A DNA stretch of 64,000 bases. Origin: Ignavibacteriota bacterium (GTDB lineage: Bacteria; Bacteroidota; Ignavibacteria; UBA10030; CAVZMI01). Every line of letters starts with the position of its first letter. Within the stretch, counting starts at the first letter, position 1. The stretch spans positions 448,001 to 512,000 of the forward strand of contig CAVZMI010000023.1 of NCBI GenBank assembly GCA_963776275.1. Reading direction: 5' to 3'. Below the pieces are notes generated by a model. The model saw only the letters and a list, made by a program, of their open reading frames with translations, ran no database searches and was not told the origin of the DNA. Shown in pieces: positions 2,656 to 62,426 of this stretch. The translations under genes were made by a program, and so were the position numbers.

Positions 2656-2876
2656 CTCTTTTACAAAAGAAAAATTTTAAAATATCAATGATGTCATTCC
2701 AGCGTGCCGACCGTGTCCTGCATTCATCGAGCCGGATTAGTCCTCTGTAAGAGAATTATCTATTTGACTGACAGTGGAATTTTTGCGGTATTCGAACCAA
2801 AGTACAGCCCGGCAATTCAATTCCGTAATAATAATTCACTTCTCTTCTTCAGAAAAAATCTATATCTTGTAGTGCT

Positions 2877-9531: not shown

Positions 9532-9558
9532 AAGTTTTTTATTTCACTTTAAAAAACG

Positions 9559-10782: not shown

Positions 10783-10801
10783 TGATTCCCCGAGATACTG
10801 A

Positions 10802-12817: not shown

Positions 12818-12835
12818 TACTCCTTTTCTATCGAA

Positions 12836-14176: not shown

Positions 14177-14233
14177 AAGATTTTTCTCCAGTAGAATGAA
14201 ATTCTTCTATAATTAACGCGGTTATAAGGGAAA

Positions 14234-14249
14234 TGTTTCGCGTAAAACA
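14234..14249. promoter_or_regulatory. Candidate parS site
   Basis: TGTTTCGCGTAAAACA, 2 mismatches to the TGTTTCACGTGAAACA consensus; intergenic, ~11 kb from parB. Confidence 0.4.
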
Positions 14250-14341
14250 ATAATATACGAAAAATCGTGCTTAAAAACAATGTAACAATTCATCGTCCTA
14301 AACTTATTCCGACGGATAACTCATCATCGATTTATTATCCT

Positions 14342-43577: not shown

Positions 43578-44030
43578 TTACAACTCCCTGTAGACATCGA
43601 CGAGATGGATCAGATCACTCTCTCCCTGCGGTACACCGGCTGTGCACCGGACTACATAGTGATTATTCGGCAAATTTCCGAATTCGGCGTGTATCATGTA
43701 CGTACAAATACATCTGCAAAGGTGTTGCGCAGTATCGACAACAGCCACAACAATTGTATCTGTTCCGGCAGTGGAAGTAACGGTGAACCGGTTTGAGTCG
43801 GGACAACAATTGCCTCTCACCGAGAAATCAATAATAAGCTTATCAATAAACGTATAGATGAAAACAGAATCTGAAACAGTCGGCTTTTGCAGGCTATGCT
43901 CCCCACACTTGCCGTACTGATAGGAAAATGAAACGGGGCCCTGTGTTTCAGGGTTAGCCGATTTTTCCTTGCATGAAAAGCAAAGAAGGGCAGTCAATCC
44001 CACGGCTATCACTAACACTGGTTTGTTCAT
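43578..44030 (-). CDS. Cys-rich lipoprotein, copy 2
   Basis: FSC lipobox, NCCPDSNRF, CRCIC; start at MNKPVL after GGAGG. Confidence 0.75.
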   Translation of the reverse strand: MNKPVLVIAVGLTALLCFSCKEKSANPETQGPVSFSYQYGKCGEHSLQKPTVSDSVFIYTFIDKLIIDFSVRGNCCPDSNRFTVTSTAGTDTIVVAVVDTAQHLCRCICTYMIHAEFGNLPNNHYVVRCTAGVPQGESDLIHLVDVYREL

Positions 44031-44085
44031 TGAAATCCCTCCCCGTGATTTGACAGAACGATTAATAAAATCTTCAACGCTTAGC

Positions 44086-44538
44086 TTATTTATTTCGATA
44101 TACATACGCAAGATGAATCAAGTTGATCCCTCCTTGCGGTTTTCCGATTGTACACCGAACTAGATAGTGATCATTCGGTAGATTTTCAAATTCGGCATGG
44201 ATCATATACGGACAATCACAATTGCAGAGATCTTGTGCGGAATCAATTACTGCTACAACGATCGTATCAATACCTGAGGCAGAAGAAACACTGAACCGGT
44301 TTGAATCCGGACAGCAGTTAGCGGTCACCGAGAAATCAATGATCAGCTTATCATTAAAAGTATACGTGAATATTGAATCTGAAATACCTGTCTTTGAAAG
44401 AACCCCTTTCATACATTTGCTGGACTGAAATGAAAATGAGCCGGGATTCTGAGTTTCAGGATTAGCCGATTTTTCCTTGCATGAGAAGCAAAGAAAGGTA
44501 ATCAATCCGATGGTTGTCACTAACACCGGTTTAATCAT
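44086..44538 (-). CDS. Cys-rich lipoprotein, copy 1
   Basis: FSC lipobox, NCCPDSNRF, CNCDC; same 453-bp length as its neighbour. Confidence 0.75.
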   Translation of the reverse strand: MIKPVLVTTIGLITFLCFSCKEKSANPETQNPGSFSFQSSKCMKGVLSKTGISDSIFTYTFNDKLIIDFSVTANCCPDSNRFSVSSASGIDTIVVAVIDSAQDLCNCDCPYMIHAEFENLPNDHYLVRCTIGKPQGGINLIHLAYVYRNK

Positions 44539-45027: not shown

Positions 45028-46678
45028 TCATCTCAGCACACTTAACGGTAGATTTCTATCAAATGTCGTTTTACTGATCTGAGGATTTTGTTTTCCTCCT
45101 GTAAGAGTTGAAACCGACGTACGAAGGTAATCAACGATCTCACCAAGTGTGACGATGCCGTCGTTGTTCGCGTCGGCCGGGATAGCTTTCATTACACGTC
45201 CCTCGGTATCTGTGATCTTCCCGCCGAGTCCGGCAACCAGGAAATATGTGAATAATCCGTGCTCCCAGTAGACCCATCCTTCGCGCGAGATTTCTCCTTC
45301 GGAGCTTGAGGTGATTGAGAGGAGTCCGGGTTTCGACCGGCCAAGCTCCTGCAGATACCGGTTGATGAGATTTTTATCGGTATCTAGCGATCGCCGCCCG
45401 ATAAAAAAAACATTCACGTTGCCGCTGAAACATGCATCTGAAAAAACAATCACACGCTCGGCAGGAATTATTTTCGTCACGGCATTTTGAATTTCTTTCA
45501 TCGCCACAGCGGTTTTTTCGAGATCGCGAAGCCTGGTGTCGCTCATCAGGAAATACGATTGATCACGGCTGAGCGACGATCCGTGTCCCGAGAAGAAGAT
45601 CATTACCAAATCCTCTCGTTTCGTTTTTGCCAGGAACGAGAAGAGCGCTTCCGTAAAATTTTTTCGCGTCGCCTGCTCGTTGAGAAGGACTAGAATATGG
45701 TCGTCGTTAAAGGCGCCGCCGTTCGGGCTTTTAAGAAAATCGGCAAAAGCCTGCGCATCACGGTGGGCGTAGCGCAATTGCGGGATAGTCGTATCACTAT
45801 ACGCACTGACACCGACGATAACTGCCCAGCGAGAACCGACGGAATATTTCATCCGTTGGATCGTCAGCTTCCGGGTCGATGAATTCCTCATCCGGTCGGC
45901 TGCAGTTACTATTATAGTATCCAGACCTTCATGTAATGGAACACGCTGCACAGTCGTCAAAAACGTTCGGACCGAATCTATACGAATCGGTGTATCATTG
46001 AGAGATAATAATGCCACTCCGCTCGAATCACGAGACCGCTATTTCTACAGAACAGACAGAATCGGTTGTCACAATATAATCGGTACCGCGGTTTGTTTTA
46101 AGTGCTATCTCGGGTCCCGAAGTATCGACTCCTGCAACAATATTTTTGGGGAGCGTACGCATACGGAGATGTTCCTCGGCAAATTCTCCAAATATACTCA
46201 TGGCGCGCAACCGTTTGAGGAACACCGATGCCGAATCATCGACGACCATGGCCCCGTCGTTCCTTTTTCGGACGCGGATCTCGGTAAATTTTTCGGTGCT
46301 GGCAAAAAGAATCAGCTCTTCTTCACCAAAGGGAGACCGCACTTCGAACAGCGTGGGCAGCTGATATGTCCGGTCTTCCTGAATATAGTCGCTTGTATCC
46401 CGCATATTTGGAACCAGCTGTAAAGTATATCCAGCCGCATCCTGATACAATACCCGGACATAGCACGGCTTTGTCGCCCGGACATACACCCGGAAACGAT
46501 CTCCTTCGGTATACCGAACCATCTGAGAATCGGTCGTCATTGTTGAGAGAAGCGGATTCCTGTCGGTCGATAGGTGGACACTAAGCGCCTGTCCGAATGC
46601 AGCCGAACTTAAGAGCAGAAACATCAGCACTCTGGAGAGGATCACTGAGAAAAATAGATTATTCGATTGCGATTTCAT
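45028..46678 (-). CDS. Exported DUF4384 + Ig-like + caspase-family (peptidase C14) protease; +1 frameshift at ~46033
   Basis: Signal peptide ...SAAFG; GDRFRVYV....CYVRVLYQDAAG...LVPN (DUF4384); RWAVIVGVS.Y, LRYA..DA, FSGHG, SDAC, HGLFTY; ORFs join as AVRDSSGV, ~549 aa. Confidence 0.85.
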
Positions 46679-48587
46679 ATACCGGGATCTCCTCATCAAG
46701 TCCTTTGACCTTGATTTTTTTACACTGAACCATCCGTACATGAGGGGAAGTTTCTCGGTAGGTTTCTTCCGATAGTAAAATTCCTTCTGGGGGTGCATAC
46801 ATCTCGAGCCGTTGGGCAAGGTTCACATTTGCACCGAGTACCGTGTAATCCATTCTGCGTTCTGTTCCCATATTACCGACAATGACCTCGCCGGTATGGA
46901 TACCGATTCGAATTTTCAAGGATAGTCGGCCCTCGGGTTCCCATTGTTCTTTCAACGCCCGGCATTGCCGCTGCATTTCACGTGCCGCATGAACAGCATT
47001 AAGCGCATGATTCTCTACTCTTACCGGATCACCGAAAAAAACCATCAGACCATCGCCGATGTATTTATCGATTGTCCCTTCATGCTGAAAAACAATTCCA
47101 GCCATTGCATCAAAATATTCATTGAGCGTACGTTTTATTTCTTCCGGTGAACGACTCGAACAATAGGGAGTAAATCCGACGATATCGCTGAAAAGAATCG
47201 TGAGCCTGCGTTTTTCTCCGAGCGACAGTAGATCGGGCTGATCGACGATTTTCCGGACGACAGCCGGACTAAAATAACGCTCCAGTGTTTGCCGTAGGAA
47301 TTGTCTCTCTCTTTGCTCGCTGAGAGTCCTGAGAATCACAAGACCTCCACACACCATCACCAGGCTGAGAAGACCCGGAAGAGTAAGAAAAAGCACACGA
47401 TAAAAAAGAAACGCATAGACGCACGTAGCGACATGCAAAAGGACACAAATTCCGAAAAGGCCGAGTAGCACCAACGGACGAACACGGGAAGAAAACAGGG
47501 TGAGAAGCGCCACAAGAAGAACCGCCAGACCGATACTCATCCAGAAAGGTGCTGGGCGAAGAAAATTTTCGGTGAGTATTGAATTGACCACCATACTGTG
47601 AATTCCGACCAGAGGAAATTTATTTTCAAGCGGCGTCGGTCCGATATCGGAACTTCCGGTAGCAGTCTCGCCCACGAAGACAAGGGCGCCGGCAAATTCG
47701 CCTTCAATATCAGCGCGCGTTTCGGGATTTGTGGCATTATCGATGATGTTCGTAAACGAGTAATGAGCTAGATCCTTCCAGTGTCCCGGAAAATTCAGTA
47801 ATATTCTTCCCCGGTCATCGATCGGGACAACAATGTTTTTGCTATTTCCACCGGTAAAAGATGCTCCGTGAAGGATGATCGAAGAACCGAAATTAACGGT
47901 GATGCTATCGGGCGGGACCTGCAGATAGTCGCACACAATCCTGAACGCCAGACTCGGATAATACGCTCCGTTGAAACTCATCAGCAGCGGCATGCGGCGG
48001 TACACTCCGTCAGGGTCGGCCTCTGCATTAATGAAACCGATGCCTTTACTTGCGCTGAGCAGCGCCGGCATACTGGCAACCACCGGTGTCGAGCCGATCA
48101 GCGGATTTCCTTTCCGTGCGACACGGATCGACCATTTTGTGCTGTCAACGATTTGAACACGCCGGTTTTCCCCCCTTTGAACGACCGACGGATTATCCGA
48201 AGGTGTAAATGCAATTGCATTGAACATCATGCCGGCCGAACGGGCTGAGGCAATAAACGTCGAATCATCATGCGCAAAACCGGGTCGTGCAAAAATGATG
48301 TCGAATGCCACGCTTTGCGCACCGGCGCGTTTGAGAAACGAGAGAAGATCGGCGTAGAAAGCACGGCTCCAGACGTACCGATCCACACGCGCCATCGACG
48401 CATCGTCGATATTGACATGGGCGATATTTTCATCGATCGGTTCGGGGCCGGACCAGGCATACCGGAGCTGAAACAGCAGATCGCTTGTGCGATCTTCCCA
48501 GCCTCCGACCGTCGCGGGGAAAAGGAACAATGCACCATGAACGAGAATCAGTACCATTAGAGCCAGAATAAGCGACGAGATTCTCAA
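46659..48587 (-). CDS. CHASE2-domain class III adenylate cyclase
   Basis: IDD.S, WSRA.YA, FDIIF, DPDGVYRR (CHASE2); 3 TMs; FSDIVGFT, IDKYIGDG, GIHTG, DYTVLG..VNLAQRLE. Start uncertain (TTG 48587 chosen). Confidence 0.92.
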   Translation of the reverse strand: MRISSLILALMVLILVHGALFLFPATVGGWEDRTSDLLFQLRYAWSGPEPIDENIAHVNIDDASMARVDRYVWSRAFYADLLSFLKRAGAQSVAFDIIFARPGFAHDDSTFIASARSAGMMFNAIAFTPSDNPSVVQRGENRRVQIVDSTKWSIRVARKGNPLIGSTPVVASMPALLSASKGIGFINAEADPDGVYRRMPLLMSFNGAYYPSLAFRIVCDYLQVPPDSITVNFGSSIILHGASFTGGNSKNIVVPIDDRGRILLNFPGHWKDLAHYSFTNIIDNATNPETRADIEGEFAGALVFVGETATGSSDIGPTPLENKFPLVGIHSMVVNSILTENFLRPAPFWMSIGLAVLLVALLTLFSSRVRPLVLLGLFGICVLLHVATCVYAFLFYRVLFLTLPGLLSLVMVCGGLVILRTLSEQRERQFLRQTLERYFSPAVVRKIVDQPDLLSLGEKRRLTILFSDIVGFTPYCSSRSPEEIKRTLNEYFDAMAGIVFQHEGTIDKYIGDGLMVFFGDPVRVENHALNAVHAAREMQRQCRALKEQWEPEGRLSLKIRIGIHTGEVIVGNMGTERRMDYTVLGANVNLAQRLEMYAPPEGILLSEETYRETSPHVRMVQCKKIKVKGLDEEIPVYEIAIE

Positions 48588-48594
48588 CCTGGCC

Positions 48595-49278
48595 TTACCG
48601 ATGCTCGATCGTGATCGTCCTGATGTAGAGTCCTGTGGCTTCAACTTCTGTCGCGAATTGGGATAGATCAACGCGGTCAACTTCTTTTTCATCGCCGATA
48701 CCACGGACATTTCCGGCAATGGCAATCGGCTTTTCAGCCATTGAAGTGAATTTCCGATACTGTTTCCGATATGAATTGATTTGTTGAATTACCTCTTGTG
48801 TCACCTTCTTTGCTGTTTGTTCATCCTGTTTCTTCAAGCTGACAAGCAGTTTCTCGAGTGCTGACAACCGTTCACCCGAGGCAATTATATAAAATGTTTC
48901 TCGCCCGGTATTCGAATCGAGTGAATACCAGAGTCGTCCGCGCGGCATGGTATAGGAAACATCGGTGGAGACCGATGTCCCGATTTCTTGCGACGAGTAT
49001 GGGAAGAGAAGCGTCATTCCCCCGCGCGAATCCTGAAACATCACATAGATATAGCAGCGTGAGAGCGGTTGGATCAGCATTTTAAACGAATCTCCGGTGT
49101 ATAGTACCGTATCACGTTGGATATTGATAATCGCTTTCTTGCCGTCCACCGACATTTTCCCCACTAGCGCCCACCGGAAGGAAATCTGGCGAGGCGTTTC
49201 CTGTGCAATAAGCAGAGAGATGCAGAATATTGCGAAGAGCGCTAATAACATGAATCTTTTTGATATGATCATTGTCAC
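48595..49278 (-). CDS. Exported DUF4384-domain protein
   Basis: Signal peptide; LYTGDSFK......CYIYVMFQDSRG...LLFP...WY.LD...GRETFYIIAS. Confidence 0.78.
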   Translation of the reverse strand: MTMIISKRFMLLALFAIFCISLLIAQETPRQISFRWALVGKMSVDGKKAIINIQRDTVLYTGDSFKMLIQPLSRCYIYVMFQDSRGGMTLLFPYSSQEIGTSVSTDVSYTMPRGRLWYSLDSNTGRETFYIIASGERLSALEKLLVSLKKQDEQTAKKVTQEVIQQINSYRKQYRKFTSMAEKPIAIAGNVRGIGDEKEVDRVDLSQFATEVEATGLYIRTITIEHR

Positions 49279-49376
49279 CTCTTCATTTATTTCAATATTT
49301 TTAAAATCAAACCACCGACCACACGAAGAATTCGAAAACGGTTTTGGAGTACCTGAACATACGTAATAATAGTCGT

Positions 49377-51926
49377 TTATGGCACTAAAGTCATTGGCAG
49401 ATTTCGGTCATACGCACCGCTGGCGAATGGATGCTGCTGCGCCTTCGTCGCACGTCGTACATTCTCGTTCACATAATCGAGCAGTTCGCCAAGACGTACG
49501 ATATGATCTTTGTCGTAGTCTGCTTCACCTTTCAAACCCTGCAGAAGGTAATATGTAAAGACGCCGTGTCCTCCGCCCCATTGGTTTCCTTCCTGAGATT
49601 TTTCTTTTGCTTCAGCAGCACTGAAGGTGCAGATGCTCGGATCTGTACGTGAAAGATCTGCAAGGAATTCATTAATGAGTTCGGAGGTTGCCAATCCCCG
49701 CGATGCTATATCGCCGCCGATCCCGGCGCTGTGACATGCATCGGCAAAAACAATCACTTTATTTGATTTGACGTAATATTTTATCGCATCCTGGATTTCC
49801 TGCATCCTGACAGCGGTCGCTCCCGGCCTCGATATATCCGAATCATACGCGAGCAAATACGGGACATTGGGCCGTGTGGGATCCGGCACGCCGTGTCCGG
49901 CAAAATAAATAATCACAACGTCATCTTCGATGGGGTTTTTTAAAAAATCGGTGATCGCCCCGCGTATATTGACCGTCGTGGCTTCCTTATTTGTCAGTTT
50001 CAGCACATTATTTTTTGAAATCCCACCTCCGCCTTTCTCACGGGATGAGACAAGAAGCTCATAGAAATCTTCGGCATCACGATGTGCATAACGTAACGTT
50101 GGGATATTTGTGTCACGATAATCGGATACACCGATAACAACGGCCCAGTACTGACCCCGGAACACTTTTTCGTTCGGTCTCTTTTCCTCGACAATATAAT
50201 TTACTTCTCGTTTTACATCGAGCGTTGTCCGCGCGATATTCCGGTACTTATCGATCGCTTCGATTTCAATGTGATTCGTTCCGAGTGTAAGCAGTGCCTC
50301 ACTGCTGAACTGCACTCCCCCTTCAATCGGTGAAAGATTTGCTTCGATGTTATTGACTCTCACGACTGCAACACCGTTTGCATCTTTGGCAACACCCTTA
50401 ATCGCTATCGATGATTCCTTTATCGAAATAACTGTGTCGTTCTTCGCTATGCCAATTCCGCGCTGGGCAATCACCTGAGGTTCAAGCAGAACGATCGTCG
50501 GCGGAATAATATCTTTCGCGGGATGAAGATCGCCAGCTGCTGCACCCGGGACGACTCCTATTCCAGGCTGAATTCCAGCCCCCTCGGTTTTCTGTTCGGT
50601 CTTTTGGGCGAGACCCCCTTTTCTCACAGTTATGAATTGATCTGTCACGCCTCCGATTTGATCGCAGACTTCGATAAAATGAGTTTTCAGTGTGTTGTCA
50701 ATCCGTATGGTCGATCTGAACTTGACCCCTCCACTTTTCATGCCGTACTGTCGGGATTCAGCATCTGTGAGTGGAACGAGGGGAAGTTCATTATTATCGA
50801 ATATCACATCGGCAATTCCAAGATCGCCTGACGTAATGCCGGTAAGGGTCAGCGAATCAGAGAGTGTTTCAAAGTCGACCGATGCAGAAGCAGCGACTTT
50901 TTCCGGAAGTGCAGGTTCGATGATTCGAATAGCCGCCAAAATAGGCTGCCGATTTTGTCCGAGTCCTTCAACATTCCATACCTTCACGGTTTTATCGGCT
51001 GAACCTGTAACAAATTTTTTCCCGTCTTTACTCACGGCAAGCGATGTCACAGGCGCGGTATGCGCCATCGGGAGTGTTATTGTCGATTTTTTAAATAGAT
51101 CGATAACAGCGATTTTCCCATCCTTCGTAGGCAAGAGAACATATTTTCCATCGGGTGTGATTTCCAAAAAATGATTTCCGGAAGAACGGCCTTTATATTG
51201 AGAAAGAATCTGTTGTGTAACAAGATCCCAATGAAGAATGGTGTTATTTCCATCGGCAGATACGAGCTGGAGACCGTCGGATGAAAAAGCGCACGCCGCA
51301 ATATAGGAATTATGTCCGCGGAGTGTACCAACCTGCATATTCCGATTCAGATGAATCAATGCAATCGAATGATCATCCAGTCCGCACGCGATAAAATGTC
51401 CATTGGGTGAAAACTCGATTGTCGTTACATTCCCCGCCAATGACACAACACCGATTTCTTTTTGGGTAGTTGCGCGATAAAAACGGATAGTCTTATCGTT
51501 CAAAGCCACCCCAAAGACGCGCGCATCGGGCGAGAGTGCAAGTGCGGTTACCCGTGACGGCATCGAATACATCCTGTCGTACCGGGTCGATGATGTCGCC
51601 GATAATGTTGTATAGACAACCGAACTGCTTTTTCCTGTATTCGTACTCATAAGAACTACTCGTTCATTGGCATTCGAAACGGCTAGAGAATATTTCACAT
51701 CGGTCAGAGTCTGGACGACACTGTCACGGAGCAGATCCCATACTTTCAATGTTGCATCCCAATCGCGCGTGATTAACGTCGTACCGTTAGAACTCAATGA
51801 AAGAAACTCGATACCGGCATTTTGCTGCCCGAGTGTCTCTAGAAGGGTGATTACCGGCTGTGCTTCAATGGTAGCTGCCATCACCACTAATAACACAGCA
51901 ACCAACAGCCATCGTGAATGTTTCAT
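49377..51926 (-). CDS. Exported WD40 + Ig-like + caspase-family (peptidase C14) protease
   Basis: Signal peptide MKHSRWLL...IEA; GH...WD repeats; YWAVVIGVSDY, YFAGHG, FADACHSA, GHGVFTYYLL.GL.G.AD. Confidence 0.92.
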   Translation of the reverse strand: MKHSRWLLVAVLLVVMAATIEAQPVITLLETLGQQNAGIEFLSLSSNGTTLITRDWDATLKVWDLLRDSVVQTLTDVKYSLAVSNANERVVLMSTNTGKSSSVVYTTLSATSSTRYDRMYSMPSRVTALALSPDARVFGVALNDKTIRFYRATTQKEIGVVSLAGNVTTIEFSPNGHFIACGLDDHSIALIHLNRNMQVGTLRGHNSYIAACAFSSDGLQLVSADGNNTILHWDLVTQQILSQYKGRSSGNHFLEITPDGKYVLLPTKDGKIAVIDLFKKSTITLPMAHTAPVTSLAVSKDGKKFVTGSADKTVKVWNVEGLGQNRQPILAAIRIIEPALPEKVAASASVDFETLSDSLTLTGITSGDLGIADVIFDNNELPLVPLTDAESRQYGMKSGGVKFRSTIRIDNTLKTHFIEVCDQIGGVTDQFITVRKGGLAQKTEQKTEGAGIQPGIGVVPGAAAGDLHPAKDIIPPTIVLLEPQVIAQRGIGIAKNDTVISIKESSIAIKGVAKDANGVAVVRVNNIEANLSPIEGGVQFSSEALLTLGTNHIEIEAIDKYRNIARTTLDVKREVNYIVEEKRPNEKVFRGQYWAVVIGVSDYRDTNIPTLRYAHRDAEDFYELLVSSREKGGGGISKNNVLKLTNKEATTVNIRGAITDFLKNPIEDDVVIIYFAGHGVPDPTRPNVPYLLAYDSDISRPGATAVRMQEIQDAIKYYVKSNKVIVFADACHSAGIGGDIASRGLATSELINEFLADLSRTDPSICTFSAAEAKEKSQEGNQWGGGHGVFTYYLLQGLKGEADYDKDHIVRLGELLDYVNENVRRATKAQQHPFASGAYDRNLPMTLVP

Positions 51927-51936
51927 TTTCGTATTC

Positions 51937-54900
51937 CTATCGTACAAGAGCCATTTTCTTTGTGATACTCATACCGTTCACATTAAGGCTATAGAAATAA
52001 ACTCCCGAAGCCAGACCCGACGCATTCACCATCACATCATAATATCCTGCAGGCTGATCGCTATCGACAAGCTTTATTGCTTCCTGGCCGACAATAGTAT
52101 AGAGAATTAGGGTGACGTGTCCCGGTTCGGGAATCTGGTACCTGATCAACGTCGATGGATTAAACGGATTCGGATAATTTTGAGCCAGTGCATACTTGGC
52201 CGGAATAGTACTCGCACCACCTGTCATTTGAGTGACATAATAGCGTTCGCCGACAATAAGTTCAAGCAAGCGAGTCCCGTCAGCCGAATATATGTCACGG
52301 AATGATTGCTGCCGCATATCGTACAGGGCATCTCGCGCCCGATCGAATAAAAATACTCCATAACGGCTGGGTATATGTTGTAGATTTTTTAATTCAAGCC
52401 GAACCATCGTGTGCGGCGCATCCCGCAATTCCAGATCCCATGTCAATCCATTCTCAATCGACGGCCTTATATCGGCTGCGAGACGATCAGAGATATCCGG
52501 GCTTTTCGGATTCGGGAAAAAGAGCGAGACGGTATTCGGCATCGCAGGTGGTTCATATACAACATAGGCATTATTCTTTTCAGAGACTTTTGTATTCACG
52601 CCAAAGTATGTGATCTTATCGAATGATACATCGTCCGATGCGATAATTTGTCCTACCCATTCATTATCATCCCGGCCTCCGGAATCCAGTGCATTTTCCG
52701 CGTTTTGAAAATATCTATAAACAGAATTCGGTTCATCACTGCACGTGGTTGAGAGCTTTTGTAGAACTGCATCGGGATTTTTCAATTTGAGAAGGCATGT
52801 ATCGGTGACATGGATCGCCAGTCCTTCCCACGGTCTGAATCCCGCCGATGTTCCAAAATCCCAACCGCTTTGCGAGCCTGATCCGGAGTAGTAGAAGGAA
52901 GACGTCGTAAGATTATTGACTGCTGGTAAGAGTTCCAAATCCGACAGTGCCAGTTGATAAGGGAAAAGATCGCCGACAATATTCCATCCGGGTTCGAGCC
53001 TGGCACCGGGTACACGAAGATAGCCCAACGATAAGGCACCGCCCAGGGTATTCCGAAGTTTTATGCTCTTCGATGTAATGAGCATGTATGCATGACCGAT
53101 CTGGAGATCAAAATCATTTGTTGTACTCCACTCATCATATACGGCCGTTTTAATGAAGCGGAACAATCTCCATTCCGATCCGTTTGTTCCTAATGAATTT
53201 TGACCGGAGAAAAAGTGCGATACCTTTTGATCGCCGAGTCCGACTGGTACTGAAAAAAGCCGATAATCTGTTTGGTTCGTCCCGCTGTGCGTGGAAGACG
53301 AAAACTTGTCAGCCGCAACGGTAATCACAATCGGATTGAATTGATCTTCTGCGACTCCATTCCACACACTCGTATTCCCGCTTAGATCGGAGGCAACGAT
53401 GCGGTAATCTATCCCGTCGGTTGTTACCGCGGCATCCGGTATTGTCGCCGACGGAGGCGTCATTCCCCGATTGAATGCAGTCCGCTGCCAAGCACCCTTT
53501 CCTGTCCGGTAATCAACATAAAAATCCTGTACTCCGCCTGGATCGGAAACATCTGCGACGATAGTAATAGCATTTCCGGGTAGCTTGACAACGGGCACAC
53601 TCACGTTCGATATCACCGGCGGGGTATTATCGACAACAGCAGTTCCTCGGATAATTGTTTGAGCTACAGGTTTCGTCAGATCATTACTATAGAGCAGTAA
53701 CATTCCATATCTCAAACCATCCGATTTCGGTGACCAGCGAAGTGTCACCTGCTGATTGCCGCCACCGGTTATAGAAATAGGGTAGACAACACTTACGAGT
53801 TTAAATTCTGATGCGCTGCCAGTCGACATTTGCACCCGGATTGAATCGACCCGGAGATCAACCGATCCGGTATTTTGAATTGAGAAATTCTGGTCAGCAT
53901 CCAGACCTGCAATGACGGTGCCAAATGAAATAGTATCTTGTACGGCAATTTTGGTCCTTGTACCCCAGTTCCATGAATGAACACCTGAGCCGATGGTCTT
54001 GACAGATCATTAGAATAGAGTATCAGTACGCCGTTTAATACCCCTCCTGATTTCGGCGACCAGCGGAGCGTCACCTGTCGACTAACACCACTTGTAATAA
54101 TGAAAGGATATACTACGCTAACGAGTTGTAAATCCGAAATATTGCCGGCGGATAGCTGCACCTTCATCGAATCGATGTGAAGATCGCTCGATCCTATATT
54201 CTGAATCGTGAGATTCTGGTCAGCATCCAGACCTGTAATGACGGTGCCAAACGAAATAGTATCCTGAACGGCAATTTTGGGTCCTTGAACCGCAGTCCCG
54301 CGAACAACCACTTGAGCTATCGATTTTGTTGGATCATTATTATACAGTATCAACATTCCATTTCTCAGACCCGCTGATTTCGGTGTCCAACGAAGTGTTA
54401 TCTTTTCATTGACACCATTTTTAATAATAAGTGGATAGACTACATTCAGAAGCTGGAATTCCGATACATCGCCTGTGGTCATCTGCAGCCGTATCGAATC
54501 AACATGGAGATCACTCGATCCTATATTCTGAATCGTAAGATTCAGATCGGAATATAGACCAACCATGACAGTCCCCAATGGAAGTGTATCCTGAACGGCA
54601 ATTTTTGGTCACTTGGAGTCCGATCCCTTGAAGTGGAACAGATGCTATTTCGAGTGTCGGATCATTACTATAGAGTAAGAGATTTGCATCACGGACACCC
54701 CCCGTGGTTGGTGCGAAATGGAGTGTTAATGTTGTAGTCTCGTCTTGTTGTAATAAAATGCTTATAGCTGCATTTGAAATTGAGAAATCGTTTGGATTTG
54801 CACCACCGATCCGTATTGAATCGATCTGTAGCGCTTCCCCTCCTACATTTTGTATCGTAATAGATTGATTGTCAGATGCACCGACGTTAACGCTTTTGAA

Positions 54901-56772
54901 TTGGACTCTTATCGGTGGAGAAATCACCGGGAACGTAGGGATCCCCCGCCAGACACCACTGCCGTCGGTTCCGGCAAAAATCATCCCATTAGATGTAAAG
55001 CCGAACGACCAAATAAACACACTTGTTAAATCCTGATTTGTCCGATACCAGCTAAGTCCATTATCATCGGAAATATAAACCCCGTCATTCGAAGTTCCAC
55101 AGAAAATGAACCCTCGAGGCCCCATTTCAAATATGTTGATATCAGGTCCGCTCAATACCTGTACCCATGAATCGCCATTATCCGTAGATCGAAAGATGCC
55201 GATATTAGTTCCAACCAGAAGTACGTTTGTTGTCTTTGTCAAAGGAAAAGATGACAGATTCCAAAGAATTTTCGTCGTGATGCCTGTCCCAACTTGTGTC
55301 CAGGTATTACCGTCGTTGGTTGACCTATAGATACTAAAAGCGCTATCAATTAAAAAAAGTGCGCCTGATTGAGTTACTGTGAACGAATAGATATACCCTG
55401 TTGCAAGTGTAGATGATATTGATGTCCATGTTTTTCCGGTATCGGAACTTCGATAAACCCCGCCCGTACTTTGTGCATACATTATACCTACTGTATTCAT
55501 CGTGATAATACATACTGTATGATCGTCTGAAGGAATGCCATTGTTACTCGCAGTCCATGTATCACCATTATCGGTTGAGAAATATACACCTCTTCCTGTT
55601 CCTGCAAATAGTGAACCATTAGGATGCACCATGATGGAATAAATCGTAGTAGTTCTGATCTCGTTGCCGACGTGAAGCCAGTTCTTTCCATAATCGGTTG
55701 TATGATATAATCCATTGTATGGAGAGCCGGCAAAGAGACCTCCTATCGACTGATGCTTGAGGGAATAAATAGCGGTACCGGTTAATCCATAATTCTGCTC
55801 TGTCCAGCTTGCCCCGTTATTTGTCGAACGATAAATCCCAATCCCGAGGAAGCCTGCATATACTGCGCCTGTTTTATCGAGGACGAAAGAACGAGTATTT
55901 GGTGCAGGAACACTTGCACTCATGGGAGTCCAATTCCCTCCACCATCAGTTGATGCTAATACTCCGTTCAAATCTGTTCCTGCATAGATCGTTCCGTCAA
56001 TCGGATTGCGACAAAGTGCGACTACCTTCAGACCGTCCATTATCAATCCACTCAGTATACATGTATTACCATCATCAACGGATAGATACATACCATCGGA
56101 GGCACCGACATAGATAATATTGAGCGTTGGATGAACGATAATCGAATAGCAGATTTTCCCGGCGATGAGATTCCCTGACGGGTACCACGTTTCACCATAA
56201 TCAGAAGAGCGGAACATACCACTGCTTGTCCCGGCAACGATTGCTCCCGAGTGGGATTGTGCGAGTGAAAGAACATTGAGATCCGTTAAACCCAGGTTGA
56301 CCGAAATCCAAGATGTGCCATAATCGACTGACCGATATATGCCATCTGAAGTCCCGGCGAAAAGAACTCCACCCGGGATGACGAGGATCGCTTGTACGCT
56401 CACATCCGCGATATCGGTTGTTGATATTAGACTCCAGCTTGTTCCCTGGTCATACGAGCGATATATTCCCGAGTAATTTGTGCCGGCATAAAGTATTCCC
56501 GTAGTATTATCCACGGCAAGTGACCTGACATACGTATTTTCTATCCCGATATTTACCGGTTGCCAAGTTGTCGCCTGATCAAGAGAGTGAAAAACTCCAT
56601 TTCCGTATGTGCCTGCATAGACGATTCCAAGATAATCATCAACTGCAAGCGCACGAACCGTGCCGCCGTACGGACCATTTGTCTTTTCCCATCGGATTTG
56701 TGAAAAAACAGACGGTGAAAGAAAAACTAATAAACCAAGTATAAGAATAAACCGTGGCCCTGCGTGTCTCAT
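51937..56772 (-). CDS. Large secreted protein: BNR/sortilin-type beta-propellers + 4 ASH (choice-of-anchor D) Ig repeats + T9SS-type C-terminal domain; compensating frameshifts at ~54610 and ~53955
   Basis: Many S.D.G.TW Asp-box repeats; four IQN.G...L.IDSI..L.W/F.P...L.LYSND repeats; QNYPNPFNP...SGVYFY...KKMALVR; three ORFs join into ~1611 aa. Confidence 0.85.
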
Positions 56773-56861
56773 TGCACTAACCTTATAATATCATTGCGAT
56801 TAAAACATCGGATTTATTTCCTGACTTTACGGATCGTGGACTGTATGCAAAATATCCTCCA

Positions 56862-57551
56862 TCATGGCAAATTTGGTGGTTCAGGAAGCTTCGTCGGTCC
56901 TTCTGTTCCTCCACCCCCCTTACTTCCACTAATGAGAACCGCCGCCAGCACTCCACCACCGACGACAACACCGCCGATAATCCAGTAGATTGTTGAATTT
57001 GATTCTGCCTCCTTTTTTACTTCTGGTTTTTGCGGAGGCTGTTCCTGCTTTTCTTTTGTCGTCAGGGGCGTTAGAGGCTTCATTCCTTCAGCCGTCTTTG
57101 CCAGAAGATCGGCAAGAATACCTTTATATTGCGAATAGAGCGTTACACTCCCTTCTAGGTAGTCCATTGTTTGTTCGTAAATCACGCGTGACTGGGTAAC
57201 ATTTACGAGACTGACTTTCAGCGTGTAGCCGGTTTCGACTTGTGTCACAACTCCGAATACTACTGCATCGAGTCCGATCTGTTTCCCAACCAAGGCGGCA
57301 GTATTTGCATCCTCGACGACCGGGAAAGATCCTTCTGCCAATTCGTCAATCAATGCCGCCCGATCCTTGATCACCAGTTTCCCATCGACAGCAAGTGTAG
57401 CAGCAAAAAGATCGGAAAAACGATCGGCGATAAGCTGCGACGTGTTGACAGGTTTAAACGGACAAACGCCAATGGTAACATCGACGAGTTGTTGACCATA
57501 TATAAGAGATGTAAAGAAAAAAAATACAAAAGAAGCGCGAAGAATTTTCAT
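56862..57551 (-). CDS. Exported CsgG/FlgO/TolB-N-like protein with C-terminal Gly-rich TM and Pro-rich tail
   Basis: Signal peptide; IGVCPF, DR..L...L.E, A..VGK.IG.D.VV.G.V; tail YWIIGGVVVGGGVLAAVL...KLPEPPNLP; GAGGAG before ATG 57551. Confidence 0.72.
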   Translation of the reverse strand: MKILRASFVFFFFTSLIYGQQLVDVTIGVCPFKPVNTSQLIADRFSDLFAATLAVDGKLVIKDRAALIDELAEGSFPVVEDANTAALVGKQIGLDAVVFGVVTQVETGYTLKVSLVNVTQSRVIYEQTMDYLEGSVTLYSQYKGILADLLAKTAEGMKPLTPLTTKEKQEQPPQKPEVKKEAESNSTIYWIIGGVVVGGGVLAAVLISGSKGGGGTEGPTKLPEPPNLP

Positions 57552-57791: not shown

Positions 57792-58964
57792 TTGTTCGAA
57801 AAACCATCATATCCGCGTTTAATCTTTGTCGACTATTTGCGATTTGCAGCAGTGTTATTCATGCTGCAGGGACACACGTTCGATGCCCTTCTTCAACCAA
57901 CAACAAAGGTAATTTATTCATATAAAATTTTTAATCTGTTCCACGGACTTACAGCGCCCATGTTTCTGTTCAGTGCCGGATTTGCATTTGCAGTCTCTTC
58001 AATCCGGCACATCGATCAGTATATTCAATATTCCCCGAAACTAGAAAAACGTTTTCTTCGATACATTGCGCTGCTGGGTATCGGATACTTACTTCACCTT
58101 CCGTATTTCTCACTTCAAAAACTTTTTTATGAGACTGCGTCGTGGGAATTTGAACAGCTCTGGAATGTCGATACGCTTCAGTGTATCGGAGTAAGCCTTA
58201 TTCTTCTGCAGACGCTTGTATTCGTTCTTAAAGACGAAAAGAAGTATCTTGTCGTGACGAGCTTCTTGGCCGGATTCGCGATTCTTCTTGCGCCGCTCAT
58301 GTGGAACCTGCCTCGGGTGAATTGGCTTCATCCCGCACTCGTTTCATATATCAATGGTGAATACGGGAGCTTTTTCCCGATGTTCCCCTGGTTTGGATTC
58401 ATCGCATTCGGTTCGGTTGTCGGACAACTCTTTTTACTTGCTACCAAAGCTAAACAGCCGGAACGCTTTGTTCTCTTAATGATGATCGTCGGGGCGAGTA
58501 TGATCCTGGCTGGACTTATCCTGGTACATTTACACATTCCTTTCTATCCAATACACGATTGGTACAAGACAAATCCTCTCTATAGTATGATCCGACTGGG
58601 TATGATTATGTTGTTCTGCGGAATGCTCTGGTATGGTGAACAACACAGCCGTAAGTATTTGCATGAGACGACAAAAAAGAAGATACGCCCGCTACAAATG
58701 CTAGGTCGCGAATCGTTAATGATTTACGTTGCCCATCTTATTGTTCTATACGGCTCACCGCTCAATCATGGTGCCGGATATTATTTAGGCACGACGCTGA
58801 ATCTCTGGCAAAGCACGTTTGTATTCGGAATCCTCTTTTTTACAATGCTTCTTCTGGCAATTGCCTGGCATACATTAAAGAAGCGCTATTCTATGCACAT
58901 ACGGTTTGTTTTGTTTGCGACAACAGTATCGTTGATAATGCTCTTTGTCACGAGAGAATATTAA
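57792..58964 (+). CDS. DUF1624 / acyltransferase-3-like membrane protein (HGSNAT-type)
   Basis: RL..VD.LR..AV.FM.QGH, APMFLF.AG, FPMFPW, GRESL.IY..H; ~10 TMs. Confidence 0.85.
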   Translation: MFEKPSYPRLIFVDYLRFAAVLFMLQGHTFDALLQPTTKVIYSYKIFNLFHGLTAPMFLFSAGFAFAVSSIRHIDQYIQYSPKLEKRFLRYIALLGIGYLLHLPYFSLQKLFYETASWEFEQLWNVDTLQCIGVSLILLQTLVFVLKDEKKYLVVTSFLAGFAILLAPLMWNLPRVNWLHPALVSYINGEYGSFFPMFPWFGFIAFGSVVGQLFLLATKAKQPERFVLLMMIVGASMILAGLILVHLHIPFYPIHDWYKTNPLYSMIRLGMIMLFCGMLWYGEQHSRKYLHETTKKKIRPLQMLGRESLMIYVAHLIVLYGSPLNHGAGYYLGTTLNLWQSTFVFGILFFTMLLLAIAWHTLKKRYSMHIRFVLFATTVSLIMLFVTREY

Positions 58965-60907
58965 ATTTCTTCTTTCCGTATTGTTTCAAGCGCTTCGATC
59001 GACCGGCGTCCTATTTTCAGAGTCTCATTTGTGATCTGCGCAATATTGTGTATCACACTGCGGAGGCGTTCAACGAGAAGTTGATAAATCAGATTCTGGA
59101 GTGTTTCATCAAGAAGACGAGTCTGTGTATTGTACAATTCCAATACTTTTATTTCTGTTGATCCGAGTCCTTTAAGAATTGTCGTACGAATTGATTTCCT
59201 CACCTTTTCTTTCTTCAAATGGAATTTTACACCTAAACTTGACAGTAAGCCGTTGATGATCATCTTTGAAATCGGTTGTGTATACGCAAGCGAAACCGAT
59301 GTCACAATGGAACCGGGTTGAAAACCCTGCACACTCGATTCGCACTGTTGTTCGATCTGTCTAATCAAATGCCGGGTAATCAGGTTTGTCAGCACATTCC
59401 GAAAATCCTTTCCTATTTCTATTTGGTGTCCGTTATCTTCTGTCTGTTCCTTGATGTGTTCTACGTGCTGACGGCAGTCTTCGAGAATACGATGACATTC
59501 CTGGTGGACGTCCGCTTTCCACCGCTGGAGCGCATTGTTCAGTCGTTCACGCAGCTCCTCGCGGATTTCTACCTCGAATTTCATCGTAATCGATTCTGTT
59601 GTCGATTGTTGATTACGAAGCACATGGTTTACACCGGTGTCGGAAAAAATTTCATCTAAAGCAAGATCGACCCTGATACGCCGGTGCTGGATGAAATTGT
59701 GTAGTGCGTCGCGTTCGGCCTCGGCATGAGTCATCACAGCCGTGTGAAATTGATGGAGACTATAGGAAACATTCCGTAGAAACATTAGCACACGATCGAG
59801 AGTGGATCGAAGAGTGTGGAGATCCGCCATGCTTTCCCTGATAACATTCTCGGTGTGATTGAGCGGATTCAGAATCCGGAGCTCCTTTCCTTCATCGGCA
59901 ATAATATGGAGGACCCTGTCGATCAGTTGATGGATATTGCTATCTTTCTGCTGCTCGAGTCCCTGTTTGCGATCTCCATGATGTTCCATATCAAGTCCGA
60001 TTCGGGCCAGACGGGCTGAGATAGGAACGATATCCAGGCTTTTCATTAGTTCTACGACACCATATTTCGGATTACGCAGCGTAGCTTCAACATATTTTAC
60101 CATCTCTGTAATATCGCGTTTTTTCAACGGGATACGTGCATCCGTATCGATGTCTTTCGCCATATCGCACTGAGTGATGACGAATAGAATTCTCTTTTTC
60201 TCGCCGTATAGATCTTCTTTAATGTTCCGGAACTCGCTACCGCGAAGAACTGCATCGCTATTGGACAGAAATAAAACAAGGTCGGCTTTTTTAACATAGG
60301 AGACAGCCAGTTCATGATTCCGCGGTGAAATCGATCCGATACCCGGCAGATCTACAACCCGGAGGGTCTCGACATCGCACCACTGGATTTCTTTCGTGGT
60401 TTCTGTAGGTTTCACTTCAAACTCTTCAAGACGTATCTGCGATCCATCAGAGAGTACCGCATGAAACAACAGCAGATCCTGTTTCAGGCCATGCACTTTT
60501 TTGCCGACAAGAAGATTCGCAAGGTAGCTCTTTCCGGAATTTACCTTCCCGAATATTACAATGCGGAACCGATCGGCATTTTCATGATAATCCATGAAAT
60601 CATCATGCAGAAGTTCGATCGGAGCAAGAATATGGTGATGAAGCTCTTCAATCGCCACCGGAAGAAAATTTTTCAACCATTCATCATCCCGATGTTCTTT
60701 ATCCGGTTCTAGAGTTCCAATATTGTATTGACAAGCCTCACACATACGTCGCAGTGCAGTGACATACATATCCTTTGCCATTTCGATACTGTGAAGAACC
60801 TGCAGATACCTTTTGGTGGACGACCGGAAATATGATCGGAATGAATAGAGTTTATTGGTGAGCATTGAAGTCATTCCGGAGTGATTGAAATTTATTGAGT
60901 GCCGCAT
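58961..60907 (-). CDS. Dynamin-like/TRAFAC GTPase with long helical C-terminus
   Basis: G1 GKVNSGKS, G2 PTETT, G3 DLPG, G4 TQCD, G5 ISAR; helical stalk. True start probably a little downstream of 60907. Confidence 0.82.
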   Translation of the reverse strand: MRHSINFNHSGMTSMLTNKLYSFRSYFRSSTKRYLQVLHSIEMAKDMYVTALRRMCEACQYNIGTLEPDKEHRDDEWLKNFLPVAIEELHHHILAPIELLHDDFMDYHENADRFRIVIFGKVNSGKSYLANLLVGKKVHGLKQDLLLFHAVLSDGSQIRLEEFEVKPTETTKEIQWCDVETLRVVDLPGIGSISPRNHELAVSYVKKADLVLFLSNSDAVLRGSEFRNIKEDLYGEKKRILFVITQCDMAKDIDTDARIPLKKRDITEMVKYVEATLRNPKYGVVELMKSLDIVPISARLARIGLDMEHHGDRKQGLEQQKDSNIHQLIDRVLHIIADEGKELRILNPLNHTENVIRESMADLHTLRSTLDRVLMFLRNVSYSLHQFHTAVMTHAEAERDALHNFIQHRRIRVDLALDEIFSDTGVNHVLRNQQSTTESITMKFEVEIREELRERLNNALQRWKADVHQECHRILEDCRQHVEHIKEQTEDNGHQIEIGKDFRNVLTNLITRHLIRQIEQQCESSVQGFQPGSIVTSVSLAYTQPISKMIINGLLSSLGVKFHLKKEKVRKSIRTTILKGLGSTEIKVLELYNTQTRLLDETLQNLIYQLLVERLRSVIHNIAQITNETLKIGRRSIEALETIRKEEI

Positions 60908-61865
60908 TGATCCGTTGCATTCGTGAATTTACAGCTGAGGACTTCCTTTCAAAATACTTCTGCGCATTGTCATACACCATTTGAATATTCCCGCTAACCG
61001 ATTGTACGAATGCGTCGCTCATGAGCTTCTGGACCTCGAGCAATCCACTGACCACAGCCGGCACACCATCATCGTCCGACATCCCACGTTCAGCCGCGAG
61101 GGCTCGAAGTCGTTCGATCGCTCTCTCTTCAAATTTTATCCGAAGAATGGGTACAATCAAAACCGACCCTGTCTTCTTGTCGAACCATTCAGAAAGTGAT
61201 GCCAGTGCTTCGTCGATTTGTTCTGATAGCTGACGGGCGAGATTATGAATCTCGGTCTGTTTAACAACGACTGTAGCGAATTCTCTCGAGATTTTTATCC
61301 CGGGTGCTGTCGTCAAGGTTTCCCGCTCGGCAAAGGTTTCTGCATTTGGAATTCGGTCTGTAAAGAAATTTTTTATGCGGTTTTGACAGGTATTGACAAC
61401 TTCATTGATATCGCGCTGGCGATCATTCCACGATTGCCGTAATTCTTCAAGTGTTGTCGTTTCTTTTTCAAGCTGTGTCTGCTCTTTCTGGAGTGCATCG
61501 AGAACATTGTCAATATATGAAATGAACAAATAGGCTGCAGTGCGGATTTTCAACTGGGCGCCGCGATCGCGGATGGTCTCGATAATGAAATACTGCAGTT
61601 CTCGCAAACCACTTGCCTGGATTTTCCGGGCATTTCCCTCACGTATACCTTCAAGAGCAAATCGGGCCGAGAAAATCAAGAATGTAGGTTTCCGTACTCC
61701 AAGAGCATGGATTTGTTTTACGAGCGCTTTCCGTACAATCTCGTAGTTTGGAACATATTCTTTCTTCTGCAGTATCCCGCGACGACGGAGTAAATATATT
61801 CCGATAATTCCGAATTGGAGAATTACAAGAATTACTAGCAGGATAACAAGTGTAGAGGTTTCCAT
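60852..61865 (-). CDS. C-terminal part of a dynamin-like GTPase (N-terminal TM, G5 FSAR motif, coiled-coil stalk)
   Basis: TM LVILLVILVILQFGIIGIYLL+RRR; FSARFAL...SGL.EL...I....G..LKI parallels ISARLA...SNI.QL...I..EGKELRI in the neighbouring GTPase. Confidence 0.7.
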   Translation of the reverse strand: METSTLVILLVILVILQFGIIGIYLLRRRGILQKKEYVPNYEIVRKALVKQIHALGVRKPTFLIFSARFALEGIREGNARKIQASGLRELQYFIIETIRDRGAQLKIRTAAYLFISYIDNVLDALQKEQTQLEKETTTLEELRQSWNDRQRDINEVVNTCQNRIKNFFTDRIPNAETFAERETLTTAPGIKISREFATVVVKQTEIHNLARQLSEQIDEALASLSEWFDKKTGSVLIVPILRIKFEERAIERLRALAAERGMSDDDGVPAVVSGLLEVQKLMSDAFVQSVSGNIQMVYDNAQKYFERKSSAVNSRMQRINAALNKFQSLRNDFNAHQ

Positions 61866-61895
61866 GTATAAAAGAATCTCTGTTTTTGCCTGATA

Positions 61896-62426
61896 TCAGT
61901 CATCTCTTTTCTTATTGAGAACATATACAACATCTTTTGCTGGTATAAGATGGTCACGGAGAAATATCTGGGTTACCGCGTCAAGATCTCCCTCCTTATC
62001 GGAGAAGAGGAACACGACAAGGTCGGCAAGGTGCAGTTCTTTAAGCAACATTGCTTCGTCGCGAGTATCTTCAATAGAATCTATTCCCGGTGTGTCGACG
62101 ATTGAAATTCCATTCCACTCTTTCTTTGAAACACGATCGGTTTTCCGGACAGCTCCGGTCGGGAAAAATTCATCCTGCTCGATGACCGCGTTGGCCGTGG
62201 AACTTTTTCCTGCCTTACTGACCCCGGCGAATAAAACGCTTAATGTGTTTTCCTTAACTCCCGCATACGTTTTTTCGACCAATCGAAAATCGTCGATAAG
62301 ATTCGGAGGGATAACTTCTGCATAAGTGGCCACCGCATCCCATACTGAGGTTTTCAGTGCATTAATACTACCGAATGCAATACCAATGCTACTTAGAATA
62401 TGTTTTACTTCCGCCTCGAAGTTCAC
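61896..62426 (-). CDS. N-terminal part of a dynamin-like GTPase (G1-G4), ending at TGA in frame with the next ORF
   Basis: GVSKAGKSS, PTGAVRKT, DTPG, VLNKKRD. Confidence 0.8.
   Translation of the reverse strand: MNFEAEVKHILSSIGIAFGSINALKTSVWDAVATYAEVIPPNLIDDFRLVEKTYAGVKENTLSVLFAGVSKAGKSSTANAVIEQDEFFPTGAVRKTDRVSKKEWNGISIVDTPGIDSIEDTRDEAMLLKELHLADLVVFLFSDKEGDLDAVTQIFLRDHLIPAKDVVYVLNKKRDD

Follow-up and report, generated by a model that had tools for sequence, protein, structure and literature searches.

A three-gene unit of an exported caspase homolog, a small DUF4384 protein, and a CHASE2 adenylate cyclase in Ignavibacteria

A 64,000-nucleotide stretch of the genome of an Ignavibacteriota bacterium (contig CAVZMI010000023.1, positions 448,001 to 512,000; referred to here as the window) carries three adjacent minus-strand genes that encode, in the order of reading, a caspase-family protease with WD40 and immunoglobulin (Ig)-like domains, a small protein of the DUF4384 family, and an adenylate cyclase with a CHASE2 sensor domain. 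From their sequences, these genes are best read as the core of a three-gene extracytoplasmic sensory module. N-terminal signals and the topology of CHASE2 place the caspase, the small protein, and the CHASE2 ectodomain in the same extracytoplasmic compartment, and functional coupling of the three proteins is very likely because they share that compartment and are inherited as a unit.

Gene content and conservation of the unit

The three genes lie in a minus-strand cluster at positions 45028 to 57551, which a first-pass annotation had described as six tightly packed genes. With open reading frames (ORFs) called under translation table 11 and domains assigned by Pfam, we detected nine ORFs on that strand. 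Of the domains named earlier, Peptidase C14, WD40, DUF4384, CHASE2, cyclase, propeller/Ig, and a type IX secretion system (T9SS) tail were recovered as Pfam matches, and the motifs AGHG/DACHS, SGHG/DACFS, and IDKYIGD were all present in the translations of the window, but single-base insertions or deletions (indels) break the frame of two of the six genes. The core consists of the WD40–Ig-like–Peptidase C14 gene (49377 to 51947, 856 amino acids [aa]), the DUF4384 gene (48595 to 49278, 227 aa), and the CHASE2–Guanylate_cyc gene (46659 to 48725, at most 688 aa). The 3′ end of a propeller gene overlaps the caspase gene by 11 nucleotides (nt). Between positions 44300 and 58000, neither consensus promoters (32 versus 24.1 ± 4.8 in shuffled sequences) nor consensus terminators (9 versus 12.5 ± 3.9) were found above chance.

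The cyclase was used as a query against 401 Bacteroidota genomes, and about 9 kb of flanking sequence was fetched for each locus and scored with home-made hidden Markov models (HMMs) and Pfam. Sixteen full-length orthologs (E ≤ 1e-129, 36 to 43% identity) and one split copy were recovered, and all 17 fall in two families of the window's order. Every one of the 17 other genomes bearing an ortholog encodes a WD40-Ig-caspase of about 800 aa, followed by a DUF4384 protein of about 230 aa and then the CHASE2 cyclase. The three genes abut or overlap, and the DUF4384 and cyclase genes share only short overlaps, even across distances of about 40% identity. The flanks of the 17 loci vary and include TPR proteins, squalene/phytoene synthases, and housekeeping genes. 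The same three-gene order is present in a scanned locus of a Bacteroidota metagenome-assembled genome (MAG), L006, whose cyclase is 96% identical to that of the window.

We also scanned metagenomes with an alignment of 19 small DUF4384 proteins, keeping 80 of 142 small-protein relatives and counting neighbors only where at least 1,200 nt of flank was available. CHASE2 was encoded within 1.5 kb downstream of the small protein in 58 of 59 loci, and a caspase was encoded upstream in 51 of 55; in three loci (L065, L067, and L082), a TPR gene stands upstream in place of the caspase. Together with the 17 orthologous genomes, these counts bear out the earlier expectation that C14 protease, DUF4384, and CHASE2-cyclase genes would co-occur elsewhere. 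The small protein was found in 15 of 251 genomes of the window's class (9 of 119 genera), as a single copy and always beside the cyclase.

Of the 29 top-ranking CHASE2-cyclase loci, 19 encode the small protein. The other 10 (L032 to L041) have neither the small protein nor a caspase. In a quick maximum likelihood tree, the 20 linked cyclases make up one side of a branch with a Shimodaira-Hasegawa-like approximate likelihood ratio test (SH-aLRT) value of 99. Two more distant loci, L058 and L060 (cyclase identity of about 30%), keep the small protein upstream of the cyclase, with no caspase in the stretch retrieved. A contig from a Kiritimatiellae MAG (L007) bears the genes for a caspase fused to CsgG, for a DUF4384 protein, and for a CHASE2 cyclase 39% identical to that of the window. 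The DUF4384 and cyclase genes share 8 nt, and a lipobox is present in each of the two exported proteins. This MAG is 11.1 Mb in size, the contig is 16.5 kb, and it holds the only copy that we found outside the phylum; mis-binning or horizontal transfer is possible.

Features of the three core proteins

Export signals were judged by eye and with a hydrophobicity scan of the N termini. The WD40-Ig-caspase begins with the signal-like segment MKHSRWLLVAVLLVVMAATIEA, followed by QP, and matches Pfam WD40 (E = 4e-31) and Peptidase_C14 (E = 2.9e-16). The first-pass annotation had assigned signal peptides to both C14 proteases of the cluster, and hydrophobic signal-like segments are indeed seen at both N termini; their PF00656 scores of 60.3 and 66 bits stand well above the cutoff of 21.4. 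A hydrophobic N terminus is present in 18 of 19 operon caspases, and the exception is cut by a contig end. The catalytic His of the core caspase lies in AGHG and the Cys in DACHS. Both residues, with the GHG and D-x-C-H-S-G motifs around them, align with Arabidopsis metacaspase-4 (6w8s; E = 1.6e-5 in a phmmer search of the PDB), and the GHG and D-x-C motifs are kept in 23 of 23 aligned caspases. The protease domain scored 87.9 bits against the NCBIfam model named “caspase, EACC1-associated type,” below its cutoff of 140. Presumably, the Asp of D-x-C lines the S1 pocket in caspases of this type. Orthocaspases cleave after basic residues, according to the text available from one study (PMC6426788), and by analogy with these relatives we infer that the window caspase would cut after Arg or Lys.

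The small protein has a signal peptide, the DUF4384 domain (a beta-sandwich), and a helical hairpin; a flexible loop then leads into a C-terminal beta-hairpin. It matches Pfam DUF4384 (E = 1.7e-10), and the two matches to this family (PF14326) in the window scored 41.3 and 60.1 bits against a cutoff of 27. N-terminal hydrophobic signals were found in 21 of 21 small proteins. Its AlphaFold2 model has a predicted local distance difference test (pLDDT) score of 85.7; the C-terminal hairpin is modeled confidently, and the only low-confidence loop spans residues 188 to 195 (pLDDT below 50). Within this loop runs the motif P-x-x-I-[GA]-G-N-[VI]-R-G, which is conserved in the 19-protein alignment, with G189 and R192 invariant; in the window it reads PIAIAGNVRG (residues 184 to 193), encoded on the minus strand at 48700 to 48729. 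The G-N-[VI]-R-G loop is a candidate protease cut site or a candidate contact with CHASE2. A Foldseek search of the PDB with the small-protein model returned nothing at E ≤ 0.001, and in a VIA fold search the best matches (Z up to 6.8) were generic Ig-like sandwiches, among them S-layer, macroglobulin MG, filamin, and Pycsar AGS-C domains.

The cyclase matches Pfam CHASE2 (E = 2.4e-49; PF05226, 168.6 bits) and Guanylate_cyc (E = 2.7e-29; PF00211, 102.5 bits). Its hydrophobic segments, read from the sequence, give a first transmembrane helix, an ectodomain at about residues 71 to 394, three further transmembrane helices, and a cytoplasmic cyclase domain. The longest ORF (688 aa) overlaps the DUF4384 gene, and its true start is uncertain. 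D514, K554, D558, T628, N635, and R639 are invariant in 18 cyclase sequences, and we take these to be the class III residues that bind metal (two Asp), select substrate (Lys plus Asp/Thr), and stabilize the transition state (Asn and Arg). The closest solved relatives of the domain are the adenylate cyclase domains 6fht, 2w01, and 3r5g. By these sequence features, the protein is a class III (IIIb-type) adenylate cyclase, best read as a receptor of the inner membrane in which CHASE2 faces the periplasm and would control the cytoplasmic cyclase domain. The model of the CHASE2 ectodomain has a pLDDT of 85.4; it had no Foldseek match, and its best VIA matches (Z of 5.4) were Mur ligase C-terminal domains. 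A complex prediction for the ectodomain (residues 71 to 394) with the mature DUF4384 protein (residues 26 to 227), made with alignment inputs and run without controls, scored 0.00, a value that weighs neither for nor against contact.

The ratio of nonsynonymous to synonymous substitution rates (dN/dS), estimated by the Nei-Gojobori method between the window and L006 in corrected frames, was 0.14 to 0.18 for the WD40-Ig-caspase, 0.11 for the cyclase, and 0.063 for the small protein, the lowest value of the cluster; such ratios point to purifying selection.

Accessory genes, frame breaks, and other loci

The remaining genes of the cluster encode three exported-type proteins. The first (56862 to 57551, minus strand) is a 229-aa protein whose N-terminal signal is not followed by a lipobox Cys; after the signal come an alpha/beta domain, a linker rich in Pro, Glu, and Lys, and a hydrophobic helix at the C terminus. 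It had been called CsgG/FlgO-like, and that label drew no direct support from Pfam: no curated family was assigned, nothing matched at E ≤ 0.01, and matches to TolB_N, LptE, and DUF3280 were weak (E = 0.013 to 0.033). An indirect trace of CsgG did emerge, as a home-made HMM tied the protein weakly (E = 1e-4 to 4e-5) to a 173-aa protein of locus L061 that itself matches CsgG (E = 1.6e-5; 24.8 bits versus 20.8). On this sequence evidence, the 229-aa protein is possibly CsgG/LptE/TolB_N-like. The L061 locus itself (positions 8953 to 14236), with L032 and L033, belongs to another Bacteroidota family and encodes a CHASE2 cyclase, then the 173-aa CsgG-like protein, and then an 826-aa CsgG-like/TPR protein.

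The second accessory gene (51937 to 56772, minus strand) is split into ORFs at 54511 to 56772, 53793 to 54578, and 51937 to 53835. It encodes a protein with a BNR/Sortilin-type propeller, about four ASH/“choice-of-anchor D” (HYDIN-type) Ig domains, and a T9SS C-terminal sorting domain. The intact 1,611-aa counterpart in L006 scored 31.4 bits against TIGR04183 (cutoff of 23) and matched choice_anch_D at E = 1.2e-51; the Pfam Por_Secre_tail score of the window ORF was 23.3 bits, below the cutoff of 27. The third gene (45028 to 46678, minus strand), split into ORFs at 46028 to 46819 and 45028 to 46017, encodes a second caspase with the layout DUF4384–Ig-like–Peptidase C14, in which the His and Cys motifs are SGHG and DACFS.

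All three were found only in the window, in the near-identical L006, and in the metagenome contig L066; the 17 further orthologous loci had none of them. Being identical to L006, L066 offers no independent comparison. The accessory proteins are additions to the operon in the window's lineage and stand outside the conserved unit, which comprises three genes rather than six. The earlier proposal of a six-gene system, in which a surface propeller starts a two-protease cascade, was not borne out by these distributions.

The two interrupted genes are whole in L006, where the products measure 1,611, 856, 243, 688, and 596 aa, the last being the second caspase; the two stretches share 94.4% nucleotide identity over 14.6 kb. 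Relative to L006, the window alone has a +1 insertion near 54609 to 54614 and a −1 deletion near 53952 to 53959 in the propeller gene, and a +1 insertion at 46033 in the second caspase gene. Contigs from public sequencing runs of a diverged relative strain also lack the indels, one covering all three sites (X1) and another the one site that it covers (X2). The window's own strain was not found in the public runs; the best run shared 0.24 of words, with about 5% differences, and the second best shared 0.06. The dN/dS was 0.23 to 0.28 for the propeller gene and 0.19 and 0.08 for the N-terminal and caspase parts of the second caspase. Across all segments, including those downstream of the breaks, it ranged from 0.06 to 0.28, and the corrected frames are free of stops. 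Because of these low ratios and uninterrupted frames, the breaks are either very recent or assembly errors.

If the breaks are real, the accessory part of the operon is decaying here, and the propeller and second caspase genes are recent pseudogenes. This is quite possible, though we lean against it. It would explain why the three indels are confined to the window and missing from the relative's assembly and from contigs in two public runs, and the insertion at 46033 lies outside any repeat or homopolymer. Against it, the ratios of 0.08 to 0.28 and the stop-free frames mean that any inactivation was very recent, and the two propeller-gene indels, which cancel each other, fall at the same QGPKIAVQD boundary of near-identical tandem Ig repeats, a pattern that slippage of an assembler at tandem repeats could produce.

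Elsewhere in the genome, contig C26 (about 8843 to 43779, minus strand; loci L001 to L003) encodes six signal-bearing caspases linked to PDZ, CARDB, Ig, or TPR domains, two DUF4384 proteins, an FGE-sulfatase protein, LPP20/FlgO-like proteins, and FG-GAP/fn3 giants of 1,546 to 1,781 aa, with no CHASE2. The genome's two other CHASE2 proteins (L005, 3786 to 8840, and L004, 6442 to 9171; contig C6) have no caspase or small DUF4384 neighbors. One is a CHASE2-cyclase-TPR protein, before which a 935-aa protein without a family match is encoded; the other, a sigma-54 activator with CHASE2, lies downstream of a gene for an M23 peptidase.

Two further features of the window adjoin the cluster's surroundings. 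At 43578 to 44538, the window has a tandem pair of small ORFs (150 and 177 aa, no family) where L006 has one, and by BLAST this segment of the window is duplicated relative to L006 positions 14198 to 14613. At 60852 to 62426, the N-terminal part of a dynamin-family GTPase (176 aa) and a 337-aa ORF share one frame with a stop between them, next to a 648-aa dynamin-like gene (58961 to 60907); the former may be a second bacterial dynamin-like gene interrupted by a nonsense mutation.

Proposed mechanism and relation to known systems

We speculate that the DUF4384 protein is a periplasmic partner of CHASE2 and that the caspase is recruited or activated, through its WD40 propeller, by a cue in the envelope or from outside. 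The caspase would then cleave the partner's exposed G-N-[VI]-R-G loop directly C-terminal to its invariant Arg, and the cut may alter the effect of the partner, or of its freed C-terminal piece, on CHASE2 and hence on cyclic AMP (cAMP) synthesis. We favor this cut because of the basic specificity of orthocaspases, the DUF4384 C termini of Csx30 (discussed below), and the protein-type signal of the Sinorhizobium meliloti cyclases; an Arg that is invariant and sits in a disordered loop would fit a cut site. That the protease processes the DUF4384 protein, and that the latter partners CHASE2 and gates cAMP synthesis, is a plausible proposal by analogy that we hold tentatively, a little short of even confidence, with binding, cleavage, and the direction of the effect all conjectural. 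A more specific form is a “protease-activated receptor,” in which the caspase would cut a pro-ligand between the Arg and the last Gly of G-N-V-R-G and the C-terminal piece would itself be the agonist or antagonist of CHASE2. We regard this form as doubtful.

Several observations weigh against the module as we read it. The loop is also kept in L058 and L060, where the small protein precedes a CHASE2 cyclase with no caspase within about 9 kb; because it is kept there, the loop may serve CHASE2 or another protease. The caspase is absent upstream in 4 of the 55 metagenome loci, and one locus (L140) lacks CHASE2. Distribution is patchy and narrow, at 15 of 251 genomes in the class, and 300 further genomes of the Kiritimatiellae MAG's phylum yielded no small protein, leaving 1 in 301. 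When 1.84 billion representative sequences were searched with a profile of the small protein, 263 matched at E ≤ 1e-30, of which the best 150 are all 139 to 293 aa long and without fusions; a separate search for longer or fused relatives, including a DUF4384-CHASE2 fusion, likewise yielded none, although this is weak evidence. Many of the counted loci are kin, and several lie on the same contigs as genomes already counted, so the linkage counts overstate their independence.

The L140 locus (1781 to 5665) has two tandem small DUF4384 genes and is divergent to a gene for a cyclic nucleotide-binding–GAF–histidine kinase. This kinase is a possible cyclic-nucleotide reader linked to the small DUF4384 family.

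An alternative hypothesis is that the module is a coreceptor without proteolytic gating. The DUF4384 protein would be a constitutive periplasmic partner or ligand-binding subunit of CHASE2, a part that secreted FecR-domain proteins may play for other CHASE2 receptors, and the caspase would act on other envelope or external proteins, supply peptides to be sensed, or simply turn the partner over. The small protein is tied more tightly to CHASE2 than to the caspase (58 of 59 versus 51 of 55 loci), L058 and L060 keep the pair with no caspase close by, TPR genes flank many of the loci, and published CHASE2 clusters include secreted FecR-domain and TPR proteins in the text available (PMC9239204, PMC5192318). 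All 17 close orthologous loci nevertheless have the caspase, as does the Kiritimatiellae locus in another architecture, and the invariant Arg in a disordered loop suits a cut site. We consider this alternative unlikely, though worth keeping in view.

Less probable still, in our judgment, is that the genes are merely coexpressed in a shared program (for example, surface remodeling, predation, or biofilm formation) without physical coupling, or that cAMP acts upstream to control the operon. The C26 locus of the same genome fits this idea, as it holds caspases and DUF4384 proteins without CHASE2, so that such sets work without a cyclase. Coexpression alone would not lead us to expect a fixed gene order with short DUF4384/cyclase overlaps at distances of about 40% identity, or a small protein with its C-terminal extension that occurs once per genome and only beside this clade of cyclases. 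A role in conflict or defense, with an envelope-sensing Pycsar-like cyclase making a cyclic nucleotide alarm and the caspases as effectors, is very improbable: the cyclase domain matches PADLOC PycC models (best E = 8.9e-32), the caspases match the PADLOC “caspase” model, and the EACC1-associated name was hit below its cutoff, yet the PycC models are class III cyclase homologs for which a match is expected, PADLOC found no Pycsar effector or other defense family among the six proteins, Lys and Thr stand at the specificity positions, as they do in adenylate cyclases, the caspases are of the exported type and not cytoplasmic, and the flanks are housekeeping genes that differ between genomes.

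The coupled three-gene module recalls several described systems. In S. meliloti, the CHASE2 cyclases CyaD1, CyaD2, and CyaK answer a protein-type signal with the help of an accessory protein of the envelope, NsrA of the outer membrane, as described in the available text of PMC13001267. The window cyclase likewise fuses a CHASE2 ectodomain to a class III cyclase, but the putative accessory components here are a small soluble DUF4384 protein and an exported caspase rather than a beta-barrel, in a different phylum. From the accessible parts of the respective reports, a four-gene CHASE2-cyclase cluster in Campylobacterota (PMC9239204) and the “BiofilmReg” operon of Burkholderia (PMC5192318) each pair a CHASE2 receptor with a secreted FecR-domain protein; these clusters, some with TPR/LysM proteins, appear there as described by comparative genomics only. 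The module resembles them in having the gene for a secreted partner directly beside the CHASE2 receptor gene, kept across genomes. It differs in its partner, a DUF4384 protein that has a conserved loop and a helical hairpin, and in counting a C14 protease as part of the unit; no ORF of the cluster matched a FecR domain in Pfam.

Caspase-family proteases have been coupled to CHASE2 before. Metacaspase-CHASE2 and EACC2-caspase-CHASE2 fusions are mentioned, with Trichodesmium erythraeum among the hosts, in the text available from PMC3501461, PMC8195603, and PMC7475262. CHASE2 in those fusions has a cytoplasmic protease as its output, whereas here the output is a cyclase, and the protease, encoded separately and exported, stands on the side of sensing. 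Among the accessory domains of orthocaspases, the accessible part of PMC7475262 names WD40 and DUF4384. Unlike other orthocaspases (C14B; Arabidopsis MC4), the window caspase appears to be exported, carries an Ig-like spacer, and sits in an operon with a receptor cyclase. The available text on the type III-E CRISPR “Craspase” (bioRxiv 10.1101/2022.08.17.504292) states that Csx30 is the substrate of Csx29 and that some Csx30 C-terminal domains are DUF4384, “often fused to protease domains.” The likeness, drawn by domain name, is that a caspase-like protease is paired with a substrate that is sometimes DUF4384, and cutting of the Craspase linker frees a signaling fragment; on the same partial source, Craspase differs in being cytoplasmic and RNA-guided, with a CHAT-type protease and a sigma-factor output. 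The first-pass annotation had drawn a parallel to cyanobacterial CHAT-DUF928-CHASE2 neighborhoods; of these, a WD40/CHASE2/DUF928 cluster is reported from Nostoc punctiforme in the accessible text of PMC5587647.

In the literature searched, with supplements outside the search, we found no description of a unit of exported caspase, DUF4384 protein, and CHASE2 cyclase, and the word “cyclase” occurs nowhere in the main text of the 2012 metacaspase operon survey (PMC3501461), whose supplement was likewise outside the search. The module is a variation on the theme of CHASE2 plus a secreted partner, with a protease component that has no described counterpart.

CHASE2 is a widespread sensor domain of cyclases, kinases, and cyclic di-GMP enzymes; to our knowledge, no ligand has been reported for it, and we know of no function for exported bacterial caspase homologs or for DUF4384. 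A three-gene unit of fixed order, with a strongly constrained small partner and an invariant Arg loop, offers a directly testable system. If the coupling holds, the switching of a receptor by proteolysis outside the cell would be a new mode of signaling in bacteria, and caspase-family proteases would be tied to second-messenger signaling and not to cell death. If the module does act as a protease-activated receptor, the freed piece would be the first defined ligand of CHASE2, and the cut would be the first physiological role of an exported bacterial caspase homolog.

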